DNA of 64,000 nt from Acidimicrobiia bacterium (GCA_040878325.1 JBBDMM010000010.1:124001-188000), one strand, 5' to 3'. Shown: positions 7,599-15,907, numbered from the stretch's first letter. Numbers and translations are program-made. The notes: generated by a model from the sequence alone, not told the origin.

Positions 7599-7982
7599 GT
7601 GGTGCCCGAGATTTACCCCTTCCTGGCAGTACGGGATGTGTCTGCAGCTGTCGAGTTCTACGTTCGCGCGTTCGGTGCCGTGGAGGAGGGCGAGCGCCTC
7701 GTAGCGCCCGACGGACGGCAGGTTGCAGTGCTGCGAGTCGCTGGCCAGCATCTCGGAGTTGCGACTGAAGCTCCAGACCTCGGCACCCCGAGTCCAGAGT
7801 CCCTCGGCGCAACGACGGTCCGCATCTCACTCGAGGTGAACGATCCGGATGAGGTCCAGGAACGCGCCGTGTCTGCGGGTGCCAGCGAGATGTTCGCAAT
7901 GGCCGATCAGCCCTACGGGATGCGACAGGGCCGGCTCATCGATCCCTTCGGTCATCACTGGTTAATCGGCAAACGCCTCTAG
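7599..7982 (+). CDS. VOC/glyoxalase (PhnB-like) protein
   Basis: PFLAVRDVSAAVEFYVRAFGA...DQPYGMRQGRLIDPFGHHW. Confidence 0.88.
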   Translation: MVPEIYPFLAVRDVSAAVEFYVRAFGAVEEGERLVAPDGRQVAVLRVAGQHLGVATEAPDLGTPSPESLGATTVRISLEVNDPDEVQERAVSAGASEMFAMADQPYGMRQGRLIDPFGHHWLIGKRL

Positions 7983-8012
7983 AGGCTCCCCTGATCGAGC
8001 GTGGCGGTGCTT

Positions 8013-8044
8013 CCCTCGCCCAGCCTACGTAAATGTCACCTGAC
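8013..8044 (+). repeat. 32-bp cassette-boundary repeat, copy A
   Basis: CCCTCGCCCAGCCTACGTAAATGTCACCTGAC. Confidence 0.85.
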
Positions 8045-8064
8045 GCTTCAGGGCACAACACAGG

Positions 8065-8095
8065 CCCTCGGCCAGCGTCCGTAAAGTCACCCGAG
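8065..8095 (+). repeat. Cassette-boundary repeat, copy B (1-bp deletion)
   Basis: CCCTCGGCCAGCGTCCGTAAAGTCACCCGAG. Confidence 0.85.
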
Positions 8096-8155
8096 GGGGC
8101 GCTCAGGCTGGTGCGGTCACAAGGAGCCAGGACCCCTCCGGGTGAGGGAAAAAGA

Positions 8156-8187
8156 CCGTCGGCCAGGGTGCGCCAATCACATCCGAG
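8156..8187 (+). repeat. Cassette-boundary repeat, copy C
   Basis: CCGTCGGCCAGGGTGCGCCAATCACATCCGAG; 13 nt from the HEAT gene stop. Confidence 0.8.
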
Positions 8188-8200
8188 GGAACGCGGCACC

Positions 8201-8740
8201 CTACGTCCGTCGTTCGATGTCGCCAATGGCGCGCTCGACGCGTCTGGCCGCCGGTTCACCGCTCGTTCGCAGCACGGCGGCGAGAACTCCGACAGCGGAG
8301 TCATCTCCGACCCGGCCTAGGGCGATCACGGCCGCCTGTCGCACCCGCGGATGCGCGTCCTGCAGCGCCCGCTTCAGCTGGGGTGTGACATCGCCCACAC
8401 CAAGTCGACCCAGGGACATGGTCGCGTTCATCCGCACCCGCCAGTGCTCGTCTGCCATCGCCTCGAGCAGCACCTGCCTCGCTCTCGGATCAGCGAGGTA
8501 GGCCATGGAACGCGCCGCCCATGCCCGCGGCCAGTACGTCAGGCGATCTCCGGTCGGATCATGGAGCAGCCTGTCTGCATGTCCATCACCGATGTCGAGC
8601 AGAACGCGGCGCCATGGATGATGAACAAGAGCGGGACCGGCCACCCGTGAACGAAGCAGCTCGGCCAGCACCCGTAGCGCCCGCTCGCCGCCCAAGCGAC
8701 TTGCGAGAGCCTGCGTCCCGATCCTCGGAGTCCACCCCAT
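8201..8740 (-). CDS. HEAT-repeat (PBS lyase-like) protein
   Basis: DEHWRVRMNATMSLGRLG and DAHPRVRQAAVIALGRVG repeats. Confidence 0.8.
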   Translation of the reverse strand: MGWTPRIGTQALASRLGGERALRVLAELLRSRVAGPALVHHPWRRVLLDIGDGHADRLLHDPTGDRLTYWPRAWAARSMAYLADPRARQVLLEAMADEHWRVRMNATMSLGRLGVGDVTPQLKRALQDAHPRVRQAAVIALGRVGDDSAVGVLAAVLRTSGEPAARRVERAIGDIERRT

Positions 8741-8779
8741 ACGGCCGAGACCCTATCTGACTGGCGGGGGGACCCGGTC

Positions 8780-8811
8780 CCATCGGCCAGGGTGCGTAAG
8801 TGTCATCCGAG
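8780..8811 (+). repeat. Cassette-boundary repeat, copy D
   Basis: CCATCGGCCAGGGTGCGTAAGTGTCATCCGAG; 6 nt from the stop at 8818. Confidence 0.85.
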
Positions 8812-8817
8812 AGGTGC

Positions 8818-9477
8818 TTAGGCGCAGAGTGGCACGACACCTCTCGGCCAGCGTTCCACGCCCTCGCTATCCCGGAGGTACACGGCGTTCGGATCGCTTG
8901 GCGAGAGCCACAGCTCCCTTCCGACCGATCGGAAACCTGTATCGATCGCATCCGGAGGCAGCTCCTGCAGTTCGGCGAAGCCCGCCCTCAGCTCGGGCTG
9001 CCCGTAGGCCTGATCCGGGTCGCGTACGTACTCGCTCCCGTCACCCGACCGCCAGGGGTGGTCCCAGCGTGCCCCCACGGGCTCACCGGTCCGAAGCACT
9101 CGTACCGTCTGCCGTCCGCAGTGAGCGGATCCCGCCCACTCGAGGAGCACGTCGAGCCGGACAAGACAGCCCTGGGCGTCGGTCCATGGGAACTCGCGGA
9201 CTGAATGTGGCTCGCCTTCGAGCGAGACGACATCATCCGGTTCTCCGGTGCACTCGTGTGCGGCGGGAGTGGCGGACCATGGATGATGGGATCTCAATAT
9301 CAGGGTGGTCGATATGGTCGACCCCGGGGACAGACCAGTAATCACCGTTGAGTTGTTGGCCCCTTGGTCGGCCGATGAGGTGACTTCCTGGGGTGTGCAT
9401 GCGCCCAGAAGGAGAATCGCTATAGCGACACGAACGCCGATGTGGCCCCTCCTGTGAACGATCCCAGATTGTCGCAC
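8818..9477 (-). CDS. Hypothetical lipoprotein
   Basis: Signal peptide/lipobox AILLLGAC; start moved to GTG 9477 so that it lies inside the repeat-bounded unit. Confidence 0.6.
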   Translation of the reverse strand: MRQSGIVHRRGHIGVRVAIAILLLGACTPQEVTSSADQGANNSTVITGLSPGSTISTTLILRSHHPWSATPAAHECTGEPDDVVSLEGEPHSVREFPWTDAQGCLVRLDVLLEWAGSAHCGRQTVRVLRTGEPVGARWDHPWRSGDGSEYVRDPDQAYGQPELRAGFAELQELPPDAIDTGFRSVGRELWLSPSDPNAVYLRDSEGVERWPRGVVPLCA

Positions 9478-9528
9478 GCCCCTGCGGACCGAAGACCGCG
9501 CGATCGACTCGCAGATAACGGTGCCCTC

Positions 9529-9560
9529 CCCTCGGCCAGCGTACGTAAATGTCACCCGAG
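9529..9560 (+). repeat. Cassette-boundary repeat, copy E
   Basis: CCCTCGGCCAGCGTACGTAAATGTCACCCGAG. Confidence 0.88.
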
Positions 9561-9641
9561 TATCGCAAGGTCGACTCGGGTCCACCGCAGAGCGCAATCG
9601 AGTCGGACTTGCCTGGAGCGACCCCGTCTTTCGGACAACCT

Positions 9642-10550
9642 TCAGCTGGTGCGCCCGCTGGCTCCTAGCGGTCTCACCACCTCGGCAAAGTACGTTCCGT
9701 CGTACTCGCAGTCAGGGGGTGGGTCGTCAGGCGTGCGATCGCTGGCAGAACCATGGAGCGTGACGTTGTCCCCTGATCTGACCACTGTCTCGGTGAATAG
9801 TGCCTCCCACCGGCTCATGTGGATGGTGTGGTCGTCCAGAAGCGAAACGGTTCCCGCCGGCCAGACGACAAGCAGCTCGCGGTCGGAGCCGGAGAAGGTG
9901 ACCGTGGTGCAAGCCCCGTCGATGGTGATGGTGGGCGTGCCGTCGTGCCCCATGCCGCCAACCCCTTCCACACCCTCGACCGGGCGAGTCGTCAGCCCGT
10001 GTCCAACCGGCGCATCAAGGGCACCGAGAAGGATCAGCTGCTCGTCGTAGGCGCAGCTCGCGGGCATCGGCTCGGCCAGCTCTCCATCGACTGCATCGAA
10101 CGGGATGCCTCGGAATTGGTAGCGGGCGCCAGATGACAAGACCAGAGTCGGGGTAGCCGGGTCGATGTCTTCGAAGTGGACGCCGTCACCCTGCACCCAG
10201 ACGTACCGTTCTCCCCCTGTCGGCGGCCCGGGCGGGAGATTGAAGACCAGAAGAGTCGCCGTGTCCCCCGTTTCGGCGGTCACGCAAGACCCGTCGACGC
10301 GGAGAACAGCGTCCTCGACGACTCGGATCGGGAGAGGGGATACGTCGAGCAATGCGTCATGCGTCGACGAACCGATCCGCGGCGGGTCGAATGCCACCGG
10401 CGTGGAAGTCGTTGACGTCGGTGAAGATGACGTCGTGACCGGCTCAGGCGTTGCTGTTGTGGGAGCGACGGATGGCGTTGGCTTCGCGGCACCCGAACAC
10501 CCCGCAGCGACGAGAACCAGCGCGACAACTGCCAGCATCTGCCGAATCAC
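9642..10550 (-). CDS. Hypothetical lipoprotein with Ser/Thr/Pro linker
   Basis: MLAVVALVLVAAGC lipobox; two related segments (VDGSCVT / IDGACTT); TACCAT just upstream of GTG 10550. Confidence 0.68.
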   Translation of the reverse strand: MIRQMLAVVALVLVAAGCSGAAKPTPSVAPTTATPEPVTTSSSPTSTTSTPVAFDPPRIGSSTHDALLDVSPLPIRVVEDAVLRVDGSCVTAETGDTATLLVFNLPPGPPTGGERYVWVQGDGVHFEDIDPATPTLVLSSGARYQFRGIPFDAVDGELAEPMPASCAYDEQLILLGALDAPVGHGLTTRPVEGVEGVGGMGHDGTPTITIDGACTTVTFSGSDRELLVVWPAGTVSLLDDHTIHMSRWEALFTETVVRSGDNVTLHGSASDRTPDDPPPDCEYDGTYFAEVVRPLGASGRTS

Positions 10551-10608
10551 CGGGAAATGGTAGGCCGAATCGCTTGGTGCGCTTCTTCGTATCGGATGTG
10601 GACCAGAA

Positions 10609-10640
10609 CCCTCGGCCACAGTGCGGAAAGCACACCCGAG
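10609..10640 (+). repeat. Cassette-boundary repeat, copy F
   Basis: CCCTCGGCCACAGTGCGGAAAGCACACCCGAG; 19 nt from the stop at 10660. Confidence 0.8.
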
Positions 10641-10659: not shown

Positions 10660-11451
10660 CTACCCAGACTCGTCTTGGCTGCCGGAGGGCGGCGGCAACC
10701 CGGCGCAGCCTGGTGGACCCATCGAGCCACCAATGATCTGGGAAATCGTGCGGGATCTGGGTTGGCTATCCGCTGCACACGGTCGTCGAGCCTCCACATC
10801 GTCGGAACGAATCTGAACAATCAGTCTCGTCTCGTCGATCAGTATGGTGATCCAACCTTCGCCCTGGTCAAGGACATAGCCGACGACGTGCTCGCCATCG
10901 GCGGTATCAATGCGCTCCGCCGAGAGCCACATGGCGTCCCCAAAGACCACTAGAACGGCCAAGAAGAACAGCATGATGCTGAGCGCAGTGATCGAGGCAG
11001 TCGATCCGCGTCCGGCACGGTCCCGACTCCGCCTCCACCGACCGATTGCAAACCCGGAGAGCCACCCCACCACGAGCCCCACGAGCATCGGGACGGTGGC
11101 CGTGTAGAAGAAGGCGGCTCCATAGAACGGCGCGGGCGCTAGTTCCCAAGCTCGAGCGGGCTGATCCTTAGGTAGAGGTCTTGCCATGTAGCGGACGAAA
11201 GCGAACGCAGCCATGAGGGGTACGGTGAACGTCAGCACGCCCAAGACGACCACGACTGTGTCGCTGTACCCAAGGATGGCCGAGGCCACTCCCGGCTGGA
11301 ACTCAGCGACGGCTAAGACCTTGAGAACCACCACGGCAAAGACGACGGTGGTGCCGACGAGCGCGGGGTGATCACGCACAAGGCGCGTCGCGGTCAATGC
11401 GCTGGAAAGGACGCGTGCGTGTGTGTTATCCGGAGTTGATGTGTGTGTCAC
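10660..11451 (-). CDS. Hypothetical multi-pass membrane protein
   Basis: Several hydrophobic segments and a soluble C-terminus; GAGGGA upstream of GTG 11451. Confidence 0.62.
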   Translation of the reverse strand: MTHTSTPDNTHARVLSSALTATRLVRDHPALVGTTVVFAVVVLKVLAVAEFQPGVASAILGYSDTVVVVLGVLTFTVPLMAAFAFVRYMARPLPKDQPARAWELAPAPFYGAAFFYTATVPMLVGLVVGWLSGFAIGRWRRSRDRAGRGSTASITALSIMLFFLAVLVVFGDAMWLSAERIDTADGEHVVGYVLDQGEGWITILIDETRLIVQIRSDDVEARRPCAADSQPRSRTISQIIGGSMGPPGCAGLPPPSGSQDESG

Positions 11452-11649
11452 GCTTCCCTCTTGACTTGAGTATGCAACGAAACTCGTCACCCCGCTCTGC
11501 GGGCGGTGGCCGGGTTCTTCCTTGCGAGTTACACAGATGTTGTTTCGTAGGGATGTTCGCGTCTACGCTTTGGGGGACCGGCAAGTGATGTCCGCGGTAT
11601 GACGACCGCCTGAGTTAGAGACCGCCGGAGTTTCCACTCTGTTCTCCTC

Positions 11650-12378
11650 GTGGGAGTGCTCATGGCGGCCGGTTGGTTCCTATCTCTGTATCCCGAGGCC
11701 GGTGAGGCTGGGGGTTCGTTCCGTGGTCTGAGCCGCGTTGATTCCTCGTCGGGTGGGGGGTGGGCGGTGGACCCGGCCCGATCGTTGGACGAGGCGGCAC
11801 GGCGGGCACGGAGCAAGGTGCGGCGGTATTGCGCTGCGAATGGGTTGAACCGCTTCGGGACTCTCACCTACGCGGGTGAGGGGGTTCATGACCCTCGGGT
11901 GGTGCGGGCCGATGTGGGTCGGTTCTTCCGTGGTCTGCGTCGGGGTCTTGGTGGTGAGGCGTTCCCGTATCTGTGGGTGCCCGAGTTACATAAGTCGGGC
12001 CACGGGTTCCATCTGCATTTTGCGGTTGGTCGTTATGTCCCTCGGGGTTTGATCGAGCGGGCGTGGGGGCGTGGGTTCGTGTTCATCAAGCTGATCCAGG
12101 GCACACCGTCGGGGGCGGGGGTGCGGGAGGAGGCTCGGGTCGCTGCCCGTTATCTGTCGAAGTATCTCGGTAAGGAGATGGCGGGGGCGGGTGGCCTCAA
12201 CCGGTATGACGGTGCCCAGGGGTTCCAGCCGAAGGCCGAACCGATCACCGGCCGCACCGAATCGGTGGTCGTTGAGGCGGCGTCGGAGCGGATGGGAAGC
12301 CAACCGGCCTATGTGTGGCGGTCGGTCAATCAGGAGGGCTGGAAGGGTCCCCCGGCGGTGTGGCTGCAATGGCGATAA
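11650..12378 (+). CDS. rep: Rolling-circle replication initiator (HUH endonuclease, Y2-type)
   Basis: Motif 1 FGTLTY, motif 2 PELHKSGHGFHLHF, motif 3 YLSKY. Confidence 0.85.
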   Translation: MGVLMAAGWFLSLYPEAGEAGGSFRGLSRVDSSSGGGWAVDPARSLDEAARRARSKVRRYCAANGLNRFGTLTYAGEGVHDPRVVRADVGRFFRGLRRGLGGEAFPYLWVPELHKSGHGFHLHFAVGRYVPRGLIERAWGRGFVFIKLIQGTPSGAGVREEARVAARYLSKYLGKEMAGAGGLNRYDGAQGFQPKAEPITGRTESVVVEAASERMGSQPAYVWRSVNQEGWKGPPAVWLQWR

Positions 12379-12539
12379 AGCCACTGTCGCCCGAGGTTGT
12401 CGCCGGCTGGGTGGATTCCTCGACGGCCGCCCAGGGCGTGCCGGCCAAGGTGACAGACCCAAATGCGGTCGAGGCGGTGTCAGCGCTGTTGGGCGAAGGC
12501 CGCGAACCGGTCGAGGTCAAAGACGCCACACCGGCGTGA
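12369..12539 (+). CDS. Small (56 aa) hypothetical protein overlapping the end of rep
   Basis: ATG 12369 within the rep 3' end; MAIKPLSPEVVAGWVDSSTAAQGVPAKVTDP; also overlaps the recombinase 3' end. Confidence 0.5.
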   Translation: MAIKPLSPEVVAGWVDSSTAAQGVPAKVTDPNAVEAVSALLGEGREPVEVKDATPA

Positions 12540-13923
12540 ACCGATCGGGATCGAAGGTGTTGCGTCCCTGCCGGGCAGGCTTCACCACGAGGTGATCGAG
12601 GACGGTTCGGACAATGGCGTGCTGTCTGGTGAGCGGCAGATCGGCCCAGGCTTCTTGGAGCAGGCTGGATCTTCCGGCGTATTGGGCGATGTCGTGAGTG
12701 GGTGAGATCCGAGAAAGGCGACGCCTCGCAGCATCTATCCGGCTCTGGATTGGTTGGCGGGCGGCGAGCCATTCTCGGTGGCTGATTGCCTTGTCGGCGT
12801 AATCGGTGGCGAGCCGGTCCAACATCGCCTCGTCGGCGGCGACCTGATCCACCAGGTCAGCCTGTTGGGTGCTCGCTCGACTGACGGCGGCCAAAGCAGC
12901 GGCCAACTCTGGAGTGTCGAGACGGTAGAGGACGGCTTGGGCAACCAAACTCTCGACGGGTTCTGACACGGCTGCCATCCGGCCGCAGCCACCAAAGCCA
13001 GGACCCGAAGCACAGACATAGCGGCGCTGGCCACCCGAACGGGGCCGGGAATACATCACCGTCCCACAAAGGCCGCATCTGAGGAGGCCGGTGAGCAGGT
13101 AACGGCGGGGGGACCGGCCCGTAGGGCCGGACCCCGCCGCCCGGCTCAACCGGACCCGCAGACGGTCCGACTGGGCCGGGGTGATGATCCCGGGCCATTC
13201 GGCTTTGGCGGTGATCTCACCCCGATGCTCCCTGCGTCCCGAGATGCGGGCCGAGCGCAGCATCCGATTCAAGGTGTTCGGAGTCCACTCCCCACCCTTG
13301 CTCGTCTTCACCCCTCGCCCGTTGAGGTCCGAGCAGATTGACCGGGCCGACTCCCCAGCCAGCGTCCGTTTCACTGCCTCTTTGATGATGGGGGCTTCTT
13401 CGGGGACGACATGGAGCCGGTCCTTGGTGTACCCGTAGGGGCGGGCACCGCCACCCGACACCTTCCCTTTCGTAGCCAGCTCGAGATGCTTGCGGCGCAG
13501 CCGGTCGGCAGCCTTATCTGATTCGGAACGGGCGATCACGCTGCCCAGTCTGGCAACCATCCGACCCTGCGGCGTCGCCAAATCAACATCACCCGCCCGC
13601 ACCGTCCGAATATCCGACAGCCCGGCGTTCTCGCACAGGTCGATGAAGTCCTCCAACTCCCTCGGACTGCGATGCAACCGGTCGGGATGCCACACCACCA
13701 GGGCGTCGACCGTCCCTGCCTTGATGTCGTCACACAGCCGTTCGTATTCGGGGCGACGCCTCCCCGAGTAAGCCGACACATCGTTGTCCACAAAGACATC
13801 GCCCACCGGCCACCCCAGCGAAGCGGCGAGGCCCTCGCAGTCGTCGATCTGACGGTCCACACCCAGATGAGTCCCATCAGGGTCAGAAGAGATACGGGCG
13901 TAGATCGCAGCAGCCTGAGGCAT
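12517..13923 (-). CDS. Large serine recombinase (integrase)
   Basis: YARIS catalytic Ser, DRLHR, PYGY recombinase domain, zinc ribbon LLRCGLCG...YVC...C, coiled coil. Confidence 0.93.
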   Translation of the reverse strand: MPQAAAIYARISSDPDGTHLGVDRQIDDCEGLAASLGWPVGDVFVDNDVSAYSGRRRPEYERLCDDIKAGTVDALVVWHPDRLHRSPRELEDFIDLCENAGLSDIRTVRAGDVDLATPQGRMVARLGSVIARSESDKAADRLRRKHLELATKGKVSGGGARPYGYTKDRLHVVPEEAPIIKEAVKRTLAGESARSICSDLNGRGVKTSKGGEWTPNTLNRMLRSARISGRREHRGEITAKAEWPGIITPAQSDRLRVRLSRAAGSGPTGRSPRRYLLTGLLRCGLCGTVMYSRPRSGGQRRYVCASGPGFGGCGRMAAVSEPVESLVAQAVLYRLDTPELAAALAAVSRASTQQADLVDQVAADEAMLDRLATDYADKAISHREWLAARQPIQSRIDAARRRLSRISPTHDIAQYAGRSSLLQEAWADLPLTRQHAIVRTVLDHLVVKPARQGRNTFDPDRFTPVWRL

Positions 13924-13945
13924 CAGGGCACATTAACGCACCGTC

Positions 13946-13972
13946 CCCTCGGCGACAGCGCTCACATCTGAG
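13946..13972 (+). repeat. Degenerate (shortened) cassette-boundary repeat, copy G
   Basis: CCCTCGGCGACAGCGCTCACATCTGAG; both arms recognisable, centre 5 bp short. Confidence 0.5.
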
Positions 13973-13981
13973 GGTGGGGAC

Positions 13982-15907
13982 CTACTCGATTCCCAGGTAC
14001 CTCAGAAACGCGGTTTGGTTGGGCTCGCGGCCGAGGAAGTCGCGCAGCATGTCCATTGGGTCCTTGGAGCCCCCCGGGCCGATGACCCTTTCCCGGTAGT
14101 CCTTGCCGACCTGAGGCGACAGCACCCCTTCGGCCTCGAAGCGGCTGAACATGTCGTCGCCGAAGACCTTCGACCACAGGTATCCGTAGTACCCGGCGTC
14201 GTATCCGAAGAGGTGCCCGAACCCGGCGGGGAAGAAGGTGCCCTCGTGGAACGGGAACAAGCCGATCTCGGTCGTCTCCCTGGTGATGGTGTGGAGGTCC
14301 TTCTTCGCTCCCGGCCCGTGGAAGGCGAGATCGAGCTTCCCGAACGACACCTGGCGAAGCATCGCCAGGGAGATGTGGAGGTTGCGAGCCTCCACCAACT
14401 GGTCGACCAGTTCGTCGGGGATCGGCTCCCCGGTCTTGTGGTGCCGGGCGAACCTGCGCAGCACGTCGGCGTTCCAGCACCAATGTTCCATGATCTGCGA
14501 CGGCGCCTCGACGAAGTCCCACTCGGTGTTGTAACCGGCGAACCGAATGTGCTTTGCCCGACCAAGGCTGTTGTGGAGGACGTGACCGAATTCGTGAAAG
14601 AGCGTCACCACCTCGTCATGGCGGAGCAGTGAAGGGGCGTCGGCTGACGGCTTGGTGAAATTGGCCACGATCGCGGTCACCGGCGTTTGCTCGCCATGAC
14701 CCGAGATCAGGTCGAAGGCCGCCGCGTGCCCGAACTTGCCTTCCCGCGGGAACAGGTCCATATAGAAGGTCGCCAACAGTTCGCCGGTGGCCGAGTCGAG
14801 GATGTCGTAGGCCACCACGTCCTTGTGCCACGCGTGGATCGACTGGTGCTGGCGGTACTTCAGCCCGAAAACCTCGCCCGTGATCGCAAACATCCCGTCG
14901 AGCACCTGTTGCAGAGGAAAATAGGCGGCCACCTCATTGGGGTCCACCCCGAACCGCTCCTTGCGAATCTTGGTGTGCAGGTATCGGTGATCCCATCCCT
15001 CGGGCCGTTCGCCGTTCTGGGCGGTGGCGAGGTCGTCGATCTCGCTGCGTCCCTTGGCGGTGAGCGCGGGCACGATGCCGGCGTACATCTCCTCGACCAC
15101 CTTGGGGTCCTTCGCCATCTTCTCTTCCATGCCGTAGTGGGCCCACGACGGCAGCCCGAAGATCTCGGCGATCCGGTGGCGGAGGCGGACCGCTTCCTCG
15201 AGGAGCGGGAGGTTGTCGGCGGCGGCCTTGTTGTAGAACTTGAACTGGATCTGACGCCGCAGGTCGCGGTCCTCGGCCTGGTCCATGAACGGGTAGTAGT
15301 CGGGGTAGTCGAGCGAAACCCGGGACGTACCCTCGGTCGCGCCGGGGGCGAGCCGCCCGACGTAGTCGTCGGGAAGCCCGGCCAGCTGCTCCCGCGTCAG
15401 GTCGAGCCCGTCCTCGAACTCGTCGATGTTGCGGGTAAAGGCCACGTCCAGCTCCACCAGCCGGGTGCGCATCTTCTGCACCTCGCCGCGCTCTTCCTCA
15501 CTCAGCCCATGACCGGCGCGACGGAAGTCGCGCTGGGTGAAGTCGAGCAACCGGCGGTCCTCCCCTTCGAGGGCGACGGCCTCGTCGGTGGTGGCATACG
15601 CCTCGACCGCCTCGTACAGGTCGCGGCGAAAGGCCAGGTCGGACTGCCACTTCGACAGCCTCTCCTCGGCTGCCTGGGCGGCGTCGCGGACTTCCTTGTC
15701 GGGGTGGACCCGGGCCATGAAGGGGCCGACGCCGTAGGCGCGCACCAGGGCGTCGCCGAGCATGTCGAGGGGGGCCATCGCGTCGGCCCAGGTGCGGGGA
15801 CCGGAGTGATCGACGATCGAGGAGATCAGCCCATCGCCCGTGGCGATCGCATCCTCGACGGCCTTGGTGACGGATTCGGCAGTGACCTTGGTGTAGTCAT
15901 AAAGCAT
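13982..15907 (-). CDS. M3 family metallopeptidase (thimet oligopeptidase-like)
   Basis: TLFHEFGHVLH, DFVEAPSQ, YDAGYYGYLW. Confidence 0.92.
   Translation of the reverse strand: MLYDYTKVTAESVTKAVEDAIATGDGLISSIVDHSGPRTWADAMAPLDMLGDALVRAYGVGPFMARVHPDKEVRDAAQAAEERLSKWQSDLAFRRDLYEAVEAYATTDEAVALEGEDRRLLDFTQRDFRRAGHGLSEEERGEVQKMRTRLVELDVAFTRNIDEFEDGLDLTREQLAGLPDDYVGRLAPGATEGTSRVSLDYPDYYPFMDQAEDRDLRRQIQFKFYNKAAADNLPLLEEAVRLRHRIAEIFGLPSWAHYGMEEKMAKDPKVVEEMYAGIVPALTAKGRSEIDDLATAQNGERPEGWDHRYLHTKIRKERFGVDPNEVAAYFPLQQVLDGMFAITGEVFGLKYRQHQSIHAWHKDVVAYDILDSATGELLATFYMDLFPREGKFGHAAAFDLISGHGEQTPVTAIVANFTKPSADAPSLLRHDEVVTLFHEFGHVLHNSLGRAKHIRFAGYNTEWDFVEAPSQIMEHWCWNADVLRRFARHHKTGEPIPDELVDQLVEARNLHISLAMLRQVSFGKLDLAFHGPGAKKDLHTITRETTEIGLFPFHEGTFFPAGFGHLFGYDAGYYGYLWSKVFGDDMFSRFEAEGVLSPQVGKDYRERVIGPGGSKDPMDMLRDFLGREPNQTAFLRYLGIE

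Follow-up and report, generated by a model that had tools for sequence, protein, structure and literature searches.

Streptococcal integrative mobilisable elements (IMEs) with a rolling-circle (RCR) initiator combine an integrase, the initiator and a small excision gene in a compact layout, lack mating-pore genes and accrete in tandem with decayed elements, and the non-canonical IMEs of this genus measure 5-18 kb, mostly carry TcpA and pair their initiators (Rep_2, PHA00330, Viral_Rep) with tyrosine integrases (PMC5357655, PMC5704250). For serine-integrase IMEs, a 2017 review states that no recombination directionality factor (RDF) is known (PMC5704250). The actinobacterial AICEs are likewise integrative and encode an RCR initiator, of the RepSA, RepAM or Prim-Pol type, together with an FtsK-type Tra; in some, a serine integrase is convergent with rep and an endonuclease gene is disrupted (PMC3218068). 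In SCC/SCCmec composites, a large serine recombinase (LSR) is found with one attR, several attL and recombinase-less units, with a GA core in the rlmH target (bioRxiv 10.64898/2026.03.31.715619). The serine integrases of phages (A118/LI, SPbeta, Bxb1) act on attP and attB arms that differ by a 5-bp motif shift, and known RDFs are predicted to bind them at the zinc-domain/coiled-coil (DBD2/coiled-coil) junction (PMC3783163, PMC12286644). Finally, pC194 plasmids and 'DSO-gene-SSO' units carry swappable cargo just 5′ of a nick in the context CTTG|A (PMC5037232).

The locus compared with these systems lies in a 64,000-nt stretch from an Acidimicrobiia bacterium (GCA_040878325.1, JBBDMM010000010.1:124001-188000), which we call the window. 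By analogy, the element it holds appears to work like a minimal IME with SCC-like accretion. Its anatomy is well supported, while its replication and transfer are putative. No description of it was found in the literature searched, which covered few subscription journals. As in IMEs, there is an own integrase with attL and attR and an HUH initiator without mating-pore genes. In contrast to the streptococcal elements, the units span 3-5 kb, their serine integrase is convergent on rep, an RDF is predicted and no coupling protein is present. An AICE is ruled out by the absent Tra and the different Rep (PF23343 instead of RepSA/RepAM/Prim-Pol), although an integrase is present; there is also a single cargo gene, and the one genome match to PF01580 (FtsK) over the cut-off lies on contig C1. 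One attR with nested attL sites recalls SCC, but the core is TC or TG, rlmH is not the target, targets are many, units hold one gene, an HUH Rep is present, and the LSR is not CcrA/B/C (20-39 bits against cut-offs of 700-900), which excludes that class. The phage integrase-RDF systems share the arm shift and, as modelled here, the site of the small partner; in contrast, this element has no phage genes, its targets are relaxed and its partner lacks a Pfam or PDB match. The nick context and the cargo just 5′ of it are those of pC194-family plasmids, yet the element is chromosomally integrated and uses PF23343 rather than Rep_1.

Integrons, too, consist of stacks of single-gene cassettes, orphan stacks included, with attC sites that have RYYYAAC/GTTRRRY cores and an adjacent tyrosine integrase, IntI. 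The stacks seen here are similar, but depend on serine chemistry at double-stranded att sites and have no attC. An integron was rejected because the junction consensus lacks RYYYAAC/GTTRRRY and no tyrosine integrase is adjacent, the two PF00589 matches of the genome (C12 and C18:89861) lying more than 20 kb from any stack. An inovirus or phage satellite was set aside as well, with no PF05707 (Zot) in the genome and no Rep relative in IMG/VR or INPHARED, and no helper link was found for the element. IS91/ISCR elements were rejected since the element ends coincide with att cores, at 0.4-3.3 kb to the left of the origin, and no transposase family matched.

The Rep-integrase module and its family

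The rep gene (11650..12378, plus strand) encodes an HUH rolling-circle initiator assigned to PF23343 (REP_ORF2-G2P) and PHROG 3419, with a two-tyrosine motif 3. In a Pfam profile search it scored 52.5 bits against a cut-off of 27.8, and its HxH and YxxKY residues (H121/H123 and Y168/K171/Y172) are invariant in 23 aligned homologues. Translation probably starts at ATG 11662. Alignment to PDB sequences gave no match, nor did plasmids, phages and viral contigs in PLSDB, INPHARED and IMG/VR; the closest named relative is an Acidimicrobiaceae record. The large serine integrase of 468 aa is encoded by an intact frame on the minus strand (12517..13923), and its Resolvase, Recombinase and Zn-ribbon domains are the catalytic, recombinase and zinc-ribbon parts of a directional serine integrase, with S12 and four cysteines invariant in 27 homologues. 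Between the two, a 56-aa open reading frame (ORF) shares 10 nt with the end of rep and 23 nt with the end of the integrase gene. Pfam and these overlap coordinates bear out the initial annotation, which had described a Y2 HUH Rep, a 56-aa ORF and a convergent, overlapping LSR without transfer or capsid genes; none of the latter was recognised in the nine proteins scanned between 7.6 and 15.9 kb. No transposase family was matched by the scanned proteins near the module, and a search for a sigma-70 promoter found no match.

The rep-LSR pair recurs elsewhere as a linked unit. Within the genome collection, 20 of 21 Rep loci have a convergent integrase, and in the remaining one only 127 nt of sequence follow the match; the search for the small ORF succeeded in 17 of the 21. 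Record titles of the Rep loci name Acidimicrobiia, Thermoleophilia, Actinomycetes and Chloroflexota. A Rep relative is encoded by 587 of the 600 metagenome pattern matches listed, that is, by at least 587, and among the best 80 of these, all 64 loci with at least 600 nt of downstream sequence carry both integrase and small ORF; the metagenome loci are not all independent, about ten pairs being near-identical. This Rep was present in 9 of 61 related genomes, and the named isolates with relatives are Phycicoccus sp. HDW14 and Microbacterium sp. cf046.

Several relatives document movement at the sequence level. A 3,929-bp element is shared by loci L081, L082 and L083 (99.8-99.9% identity), where it has recently entered three different targets; similarity between the loci stops at the predicted TC cores. 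Its Rep is 77% identical to that of the window. Likewise, a 3,418-bp element occupies two targets, one in L157 and one in L159, and in L157 the integrase is followed by a P arm, TG, a P′ arm and then the element's own cargo. This attP junction, found at 1 of 41 listed integrase-proximal sites, may stem from a circle, a tandem dimer or a loop in the assembly. Phycicoccus sp. HDW14, whose genome is closed, has a solo copy of ~4.0 kb that splits a Walker-A motif; its single cargo ORF stops 7 nt short of the origin motif. From the Walker-A context, we take the split gene to be tadA/cpaF-like. The initial annotation had left room for a truncated AICE or prophage, against which this complete copy speaks, and complete units in 14 contigs span 3.1-5.2 kb, some of them near-identical. 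For the window itself, the contigs of the run holding this stretch had a depth of 40-44 on the module and 47 on the flanks, and no attP joint was found among these contigs.

The host genome carries a second copy of the module on contig C6, in which Rep is 76% identical and the N- and C-terminal halves of the integrase are 96% and 66% identical, respectively. Homology between the copies begins sharply at ~11458 and stops just past 13950. The C6 copy (L001) is a mosaic, with an origin-rep segment (L001 12909-13802) 92% identical to an element from another genus (L030) and an integrase 5′ half (L001 14658-15501) 92% identical to the window copy. Its integrase gene is split by a 45-nt poly-C run (G000:C6:244623-244667), probably an assembly artefact; the genome has six homopolymers of length 20 or more. 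No stacks were detected in a sister clade (L054, L060; L051, L056, L058, L059; several of L097-L158), whose targets are Walker-A codons of tadA/cpaF-like genes or, in HNH-like genes, an Asn codon, with AA as the core in most cases. An automatic attL search in the non-array clade succeeded for L060 only (1 of 10 loci). Genome G034, which consists of many short contigs, has 18 matches to the integrase, at least nine of them full length and many at contig ends. On contig C7, a separate element (L184, G000:C7 6000-21200) holds type I restriction-modification genes, a coupling-protein-like ATPase, a MobC relaxase, a methylase, an M78 peptidase and another serine integrase.

Element ends, att sites and predicted origin

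Judged from sequence, the element runs from the attL core at 10612-10613 to the attR core at 13949-13950, a length of 3,337 bp (3.34 kb) that includes one cargo gene. The limits originally given, 11460..13972 (2.5 kb), enclose the backbone only. The attL site of this terminal element (10590..10640, plus strand) was located by its invariant TC and the breakpoints of identical relatives, and consists of a host-type (B) arm at 10590-10611, the crossover TC at 10612-10613 and an element-type (P′) arm at 10614-10640; att geometry and breakpoints thus displace the left end from 11460. The attR site (13922..13972, plus strand) consists of a P arm at 13922-13948, which overlaps the integrase start codon, the core TC at 13949-13950 and a host-type (B′) arm at 13951-13972, so that position 13972 stands as the end of the host-side arm and falls as the end of the element.

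These assignments rest on a 32-nt repeat that occurs six times left of the module and in four further clusters of the genome, three of which lack an integrase; its TC is shared by all 26 of 26 sites. Counted outward from this TC, the distance to a 13-nt distal motif is 14 nt on the right side of each junction, and the same motif, inverted, is found 14 nt left of the TC at the integrase-start site, whereas the other arms show a spacing of 9 nt. The 9-nt offset holds for the left arm at 25 own junctions and at 60 others (reached by none of 1000 shuffles in either set) and also in 40 attR right arms; at offset 14, the same left arms are equalled by 967 of 1000 shuffles (own) and 789 of 1000 (other). 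All of these counts take in sites with a TC or TG core only. The shift of 5 bp is that of the phage serine integrases, here as offsets of 14 and 9 (PMC3783163), and this pattern identifies 13949-13950 as the attR core and every junction as attL-type. Clades differ in having TC or TG as the core, and attR and junction cores agree in 12 of 14 loci (L033 and L035 disagree), three of the attR cores having been read by eye. The sequence GTCACCCG (11486-11493), previously taken as a half-site, is not an att arm: its arm score is -23.7, and the C6 copy diverges after GTCAC.

The genes flanking the insertion are housekeeping genes, and the TC core lies beside a peptidase M3 gene. In the empty-site comparison, the oxidoreductase and peptidase genes stand tail to tail in genome G005; G005 and G001-G003 are too distant to yield attB at base level. 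A search of the window against Rfam gave no match, and a tRNA-Arg called by ARAGORN at 14354 was discarded as a target, since it sits within the peptidase gene.

The predicted double-strand origin (11460..11489, plus strand) contains a candidate nick at 11468/11469 (CTTG|A) followed downstream by a conserved binding segment. It is the match of its first ten bases to the nick context given for pC194 that suggests this nick position (PMC5037232). At the motif, the C6 copy is identical over ~35 nt despite unrelated flanks, and the whole host genome has only these two occurrences. Of 28 scored loci (29 Rep loci minus one without upstream sequence), 19 have the 30-nt motif upstream of rep, with scores of 30-54 bits where shuffled sequences reach no more than 13, and the other nine lack it; it was found in 43 of the 54 evaluable metagenome loci among the best 80 of at least 587 matches, and is missing in 11. 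The interval 11460-11478, earlier proposed as a nick site or an end, therefore holds up as a conserved, pC194-like candidate nick region and fails as an element end. Because conservation begins at the origin motif, the cargo lies between the P′ arm and the predicted nick and would be copied last, as reported for qacC units, whose cargo also sits just 5′ of the nick (PMC5037232). The region 11380-11660 shows no special fold (z -0.11). In L047, L053, L054, L100 and L134, a conserved hairpin around TAGCG lies just 5′ of the origin and is a candidate single-strand origin. In another clade (L030, L046, L090, L091), att arms or a second origin lie inverted to the left of the core, and in L091 two back-to-back origins flank one cargo.

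The 56-aa small protein

The 56-aa protein (12369..12539, plus strand) is a predicted RDF, as the initial annotation had proposed. Structure prediction gave two helices (pLDDT 86), with no Pfam family, no PDB fold and Atlas matches all below 0.9. Clustered at 50% identity, its family (E up to 0.001) comprises 2,483 clusters, with context checked for a few dozen clusters only. Among 22 small-ORF loci from a search across the class, 18 had a related integrase within 1.5 kb and 5 had this Rep, where one unpublished locus is omitted, several loci belong to the seed alignment and three matches are weak. The small ORF is also present beside integrases that are paired with RepSA, with DUF3631 or with no detected Rep. 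We modelled the small protein in complex with integrase residues 270-468, which gave an ipSAE of 0.70 against 0.00 for the best control, with contacts agreeing to at least 83% and a partner pLDDT of at least 75; of the solved pairs, 116 of 157 attain this mark, and of the mismatched pairs 2 of 215; it is roughly applicable with the alignments used. The modelled interface comprises integrase residues 325-347, 422-441 and 457-468, at the zinc-domain/coiled-coil junction predicted as the binding site of known RDFs (PMC12286644). Conservation is higher in this interface (0.69) than in the remainder of the region (0.56). The model speaks for the proposed function, and part of its score may come from resemblance to integrase-RDF complexes of solved structure. 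Co-variation between the small ORF and the C-terminal half of the integrase was not supported, since Rep divergence tracks the small ORF at least equally (rho 0.32 for the integrase half and 0.42 for Rep, distance matrices of 47 loci). In L051 (1120-1916) and L054 (10950-11544), ~0.6-0.8 kb of extra DNA lies between the small ORF and the integrase end.

Cassette stacks and the proposed cycle

The cargo of the terminal element (10663..11397, minus strand) is a predicted membrane protein of ~245 aa with no Pfam match over the cut-off; the Atlas record begins at residue 32 of the long ORF, and look-alikes are unnamed Actinomycetota proteins. To its left lies a cassette stack (7994..10611, plus strand) whose junctions are, by their arms, attL-type products of the same site as the element's own. 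Further junction cores lie at 8016-8017, 8068-8069 (one base short), 8159-8160, 8783-8784 and 9532-9533, enclosing empty units of 52 nt and 91 nt, a HEAT-repeat gene (8201-8740, minus strand) and, up to the element, two genes without a Pfam family (8818-9597 and 9642-10619, minus strand). As the left arms of the junctions are B-type, each would record an insertion at the right end of the previous unit. Empty units of 52-53 nt recur (window 8016-8160; L001 5958-6230 and 10973-11110; L079 7496-7580; L080 4359-4444), with a spacer that resembles a shortened P arm, as if an element had collapsed between its arms, and with a conserved leader segment after them in several arrays. DNA 80-86% identical to the cassette gene at 9680-10430 (cassette 9534-10611) is also present on C7 and C12, where it does not belong to an att-flanked stack. 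A glyoxalase-family gene (7599-7982) to the left of the first junction, missing at the G005 locus, is perhaps an older cassette with a decayed site.

The host genome has five such stacks, three of them without an integrase, and no attB end was found at these three. We collected 87 cassette segments, 54 internal (43-4054 nt) and 33 ending at an origin, mostly with one ORF per junction pair. Of the longest cassette ORFs, some of which may have been picked on the wrong strand, 22 of 58 match Pfam (Fic, glyoxalase, GNAT, hydrolase, phosphotransferase, MFS, methylase). These same-orientation, single-ORF units, the integrase-less stacks, a cargo that resembles cassette repertoires and one cassette common to two genera (72% nt) would all suit an integron-like platform, in which the integrase moves cassettes singly and the Rep-integrase core is a resident capture and amplification engine. 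We consider this improbable, however: all junctions are attL-type, and direct attL x attL recombination is unproductive in the model of PMC3783163; no identical cassette occupies two array positions among the 87 segments, bar the 52-nt empty units and re-sampled elements; and cassettes lack an origin. With two origins in the whole genome and none in the cassettes, amplification of a cassette would be possible only in cis with a core. Moreover, an internal C6 cassette and the single cargo gene of complete elements are homologues in the same register (62% aa over 81 residues), which suggests that cassettes are the cargo of earlier elements.

We therefore return to a minimal integrative element, arranged as attL, cargo, origin, rep, small ORF, convergent serine integrase and attR, which is the likely explanation, mechanism included. 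Here, the integrase would insert a circle whose attP has two arms with the distal motif 14 nt from the TC/TG core into the chromosome, at loosely defined targets with the distal motif 9 nt from the core. Binding of the small protein would then switch the integrase to excision, and Rep would nick the origin of the excised circle for rolling-circle copying, with the cargo copied last. If new elements kept inserting at or within a resident copy and all cores but one were then lost, the result would be a row of cargo genes, each preceded by an attL scar, with one attR at the end of the stack; recombination between this attR and an outer attL could excise several cassettes together. As no intermediate of stack growth (a second origin or arm right of attR) was seen, we infer this growth, by insertion within or next to a resident copy and duplicate-core loss, as the simplest route.

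More doubtful still is a reading of Rep as mainly a relaxase, in which case the element would be a satellite or a mobilisable element dependent on a helper, and its origin would also serve as oriT. RCR initiators act in this way in streptococcal IMEs and some plasmids (PMC5704250), records in both Actinomycetota and Chloroflexota imply transfer, and the host has a separate element with MobC, a coupling protein and an LSR. Yet the element itself encodes no coupling protein, the sole strong FtsK match lies on another contig, there is no Zot match, and IMG/VR, INPHARED and PLSDB hold no relative. The host has ComEC, so transformation of circles is an alternative route of putative transfer, and the relaxase and minimal integrative element readings are not exclusive. 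A decayed remnant of a larger AICE or prophage is very improbable and already largely refuted, for although sister integrases with the same small ORF pair with AICE-type initiators (RepSA in L027, DUF3631/RepAM in L042) and AICE remnants without tra are known (PMC3218068), the complete and in part near-identical units, the identical copies at different sites, the intact frames and the housekeeping genes flanking the window copy all argue against it.

The minimal integrative element would thus be a very small autonomous integrative replicon with a predicted nick position, att cores and RDF. A wider view, which we hold tentatively, is that of a widespread, unnamed gene-capture system that may do the integron's job by serine chemistry, with a 2.5-kb autonomous core of loose target choice that stacks, re-excises variable stacks with its own RDF, amplifies them by rolling circle and spreads across phyla without conjugation or capsid genes, and whose small protein would define a family of thousands of new integrase-RDF pairs. 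The element offers a candidate mechanism for the stacks of single-gene cassettes found in Acidimicrobiia and in related bacteria from soil and sediment, a result like that of integrons but reached by other chemistry, and its small-protein family could supply many reversible serine integrase-RDF pairs, which have so far been scarce.
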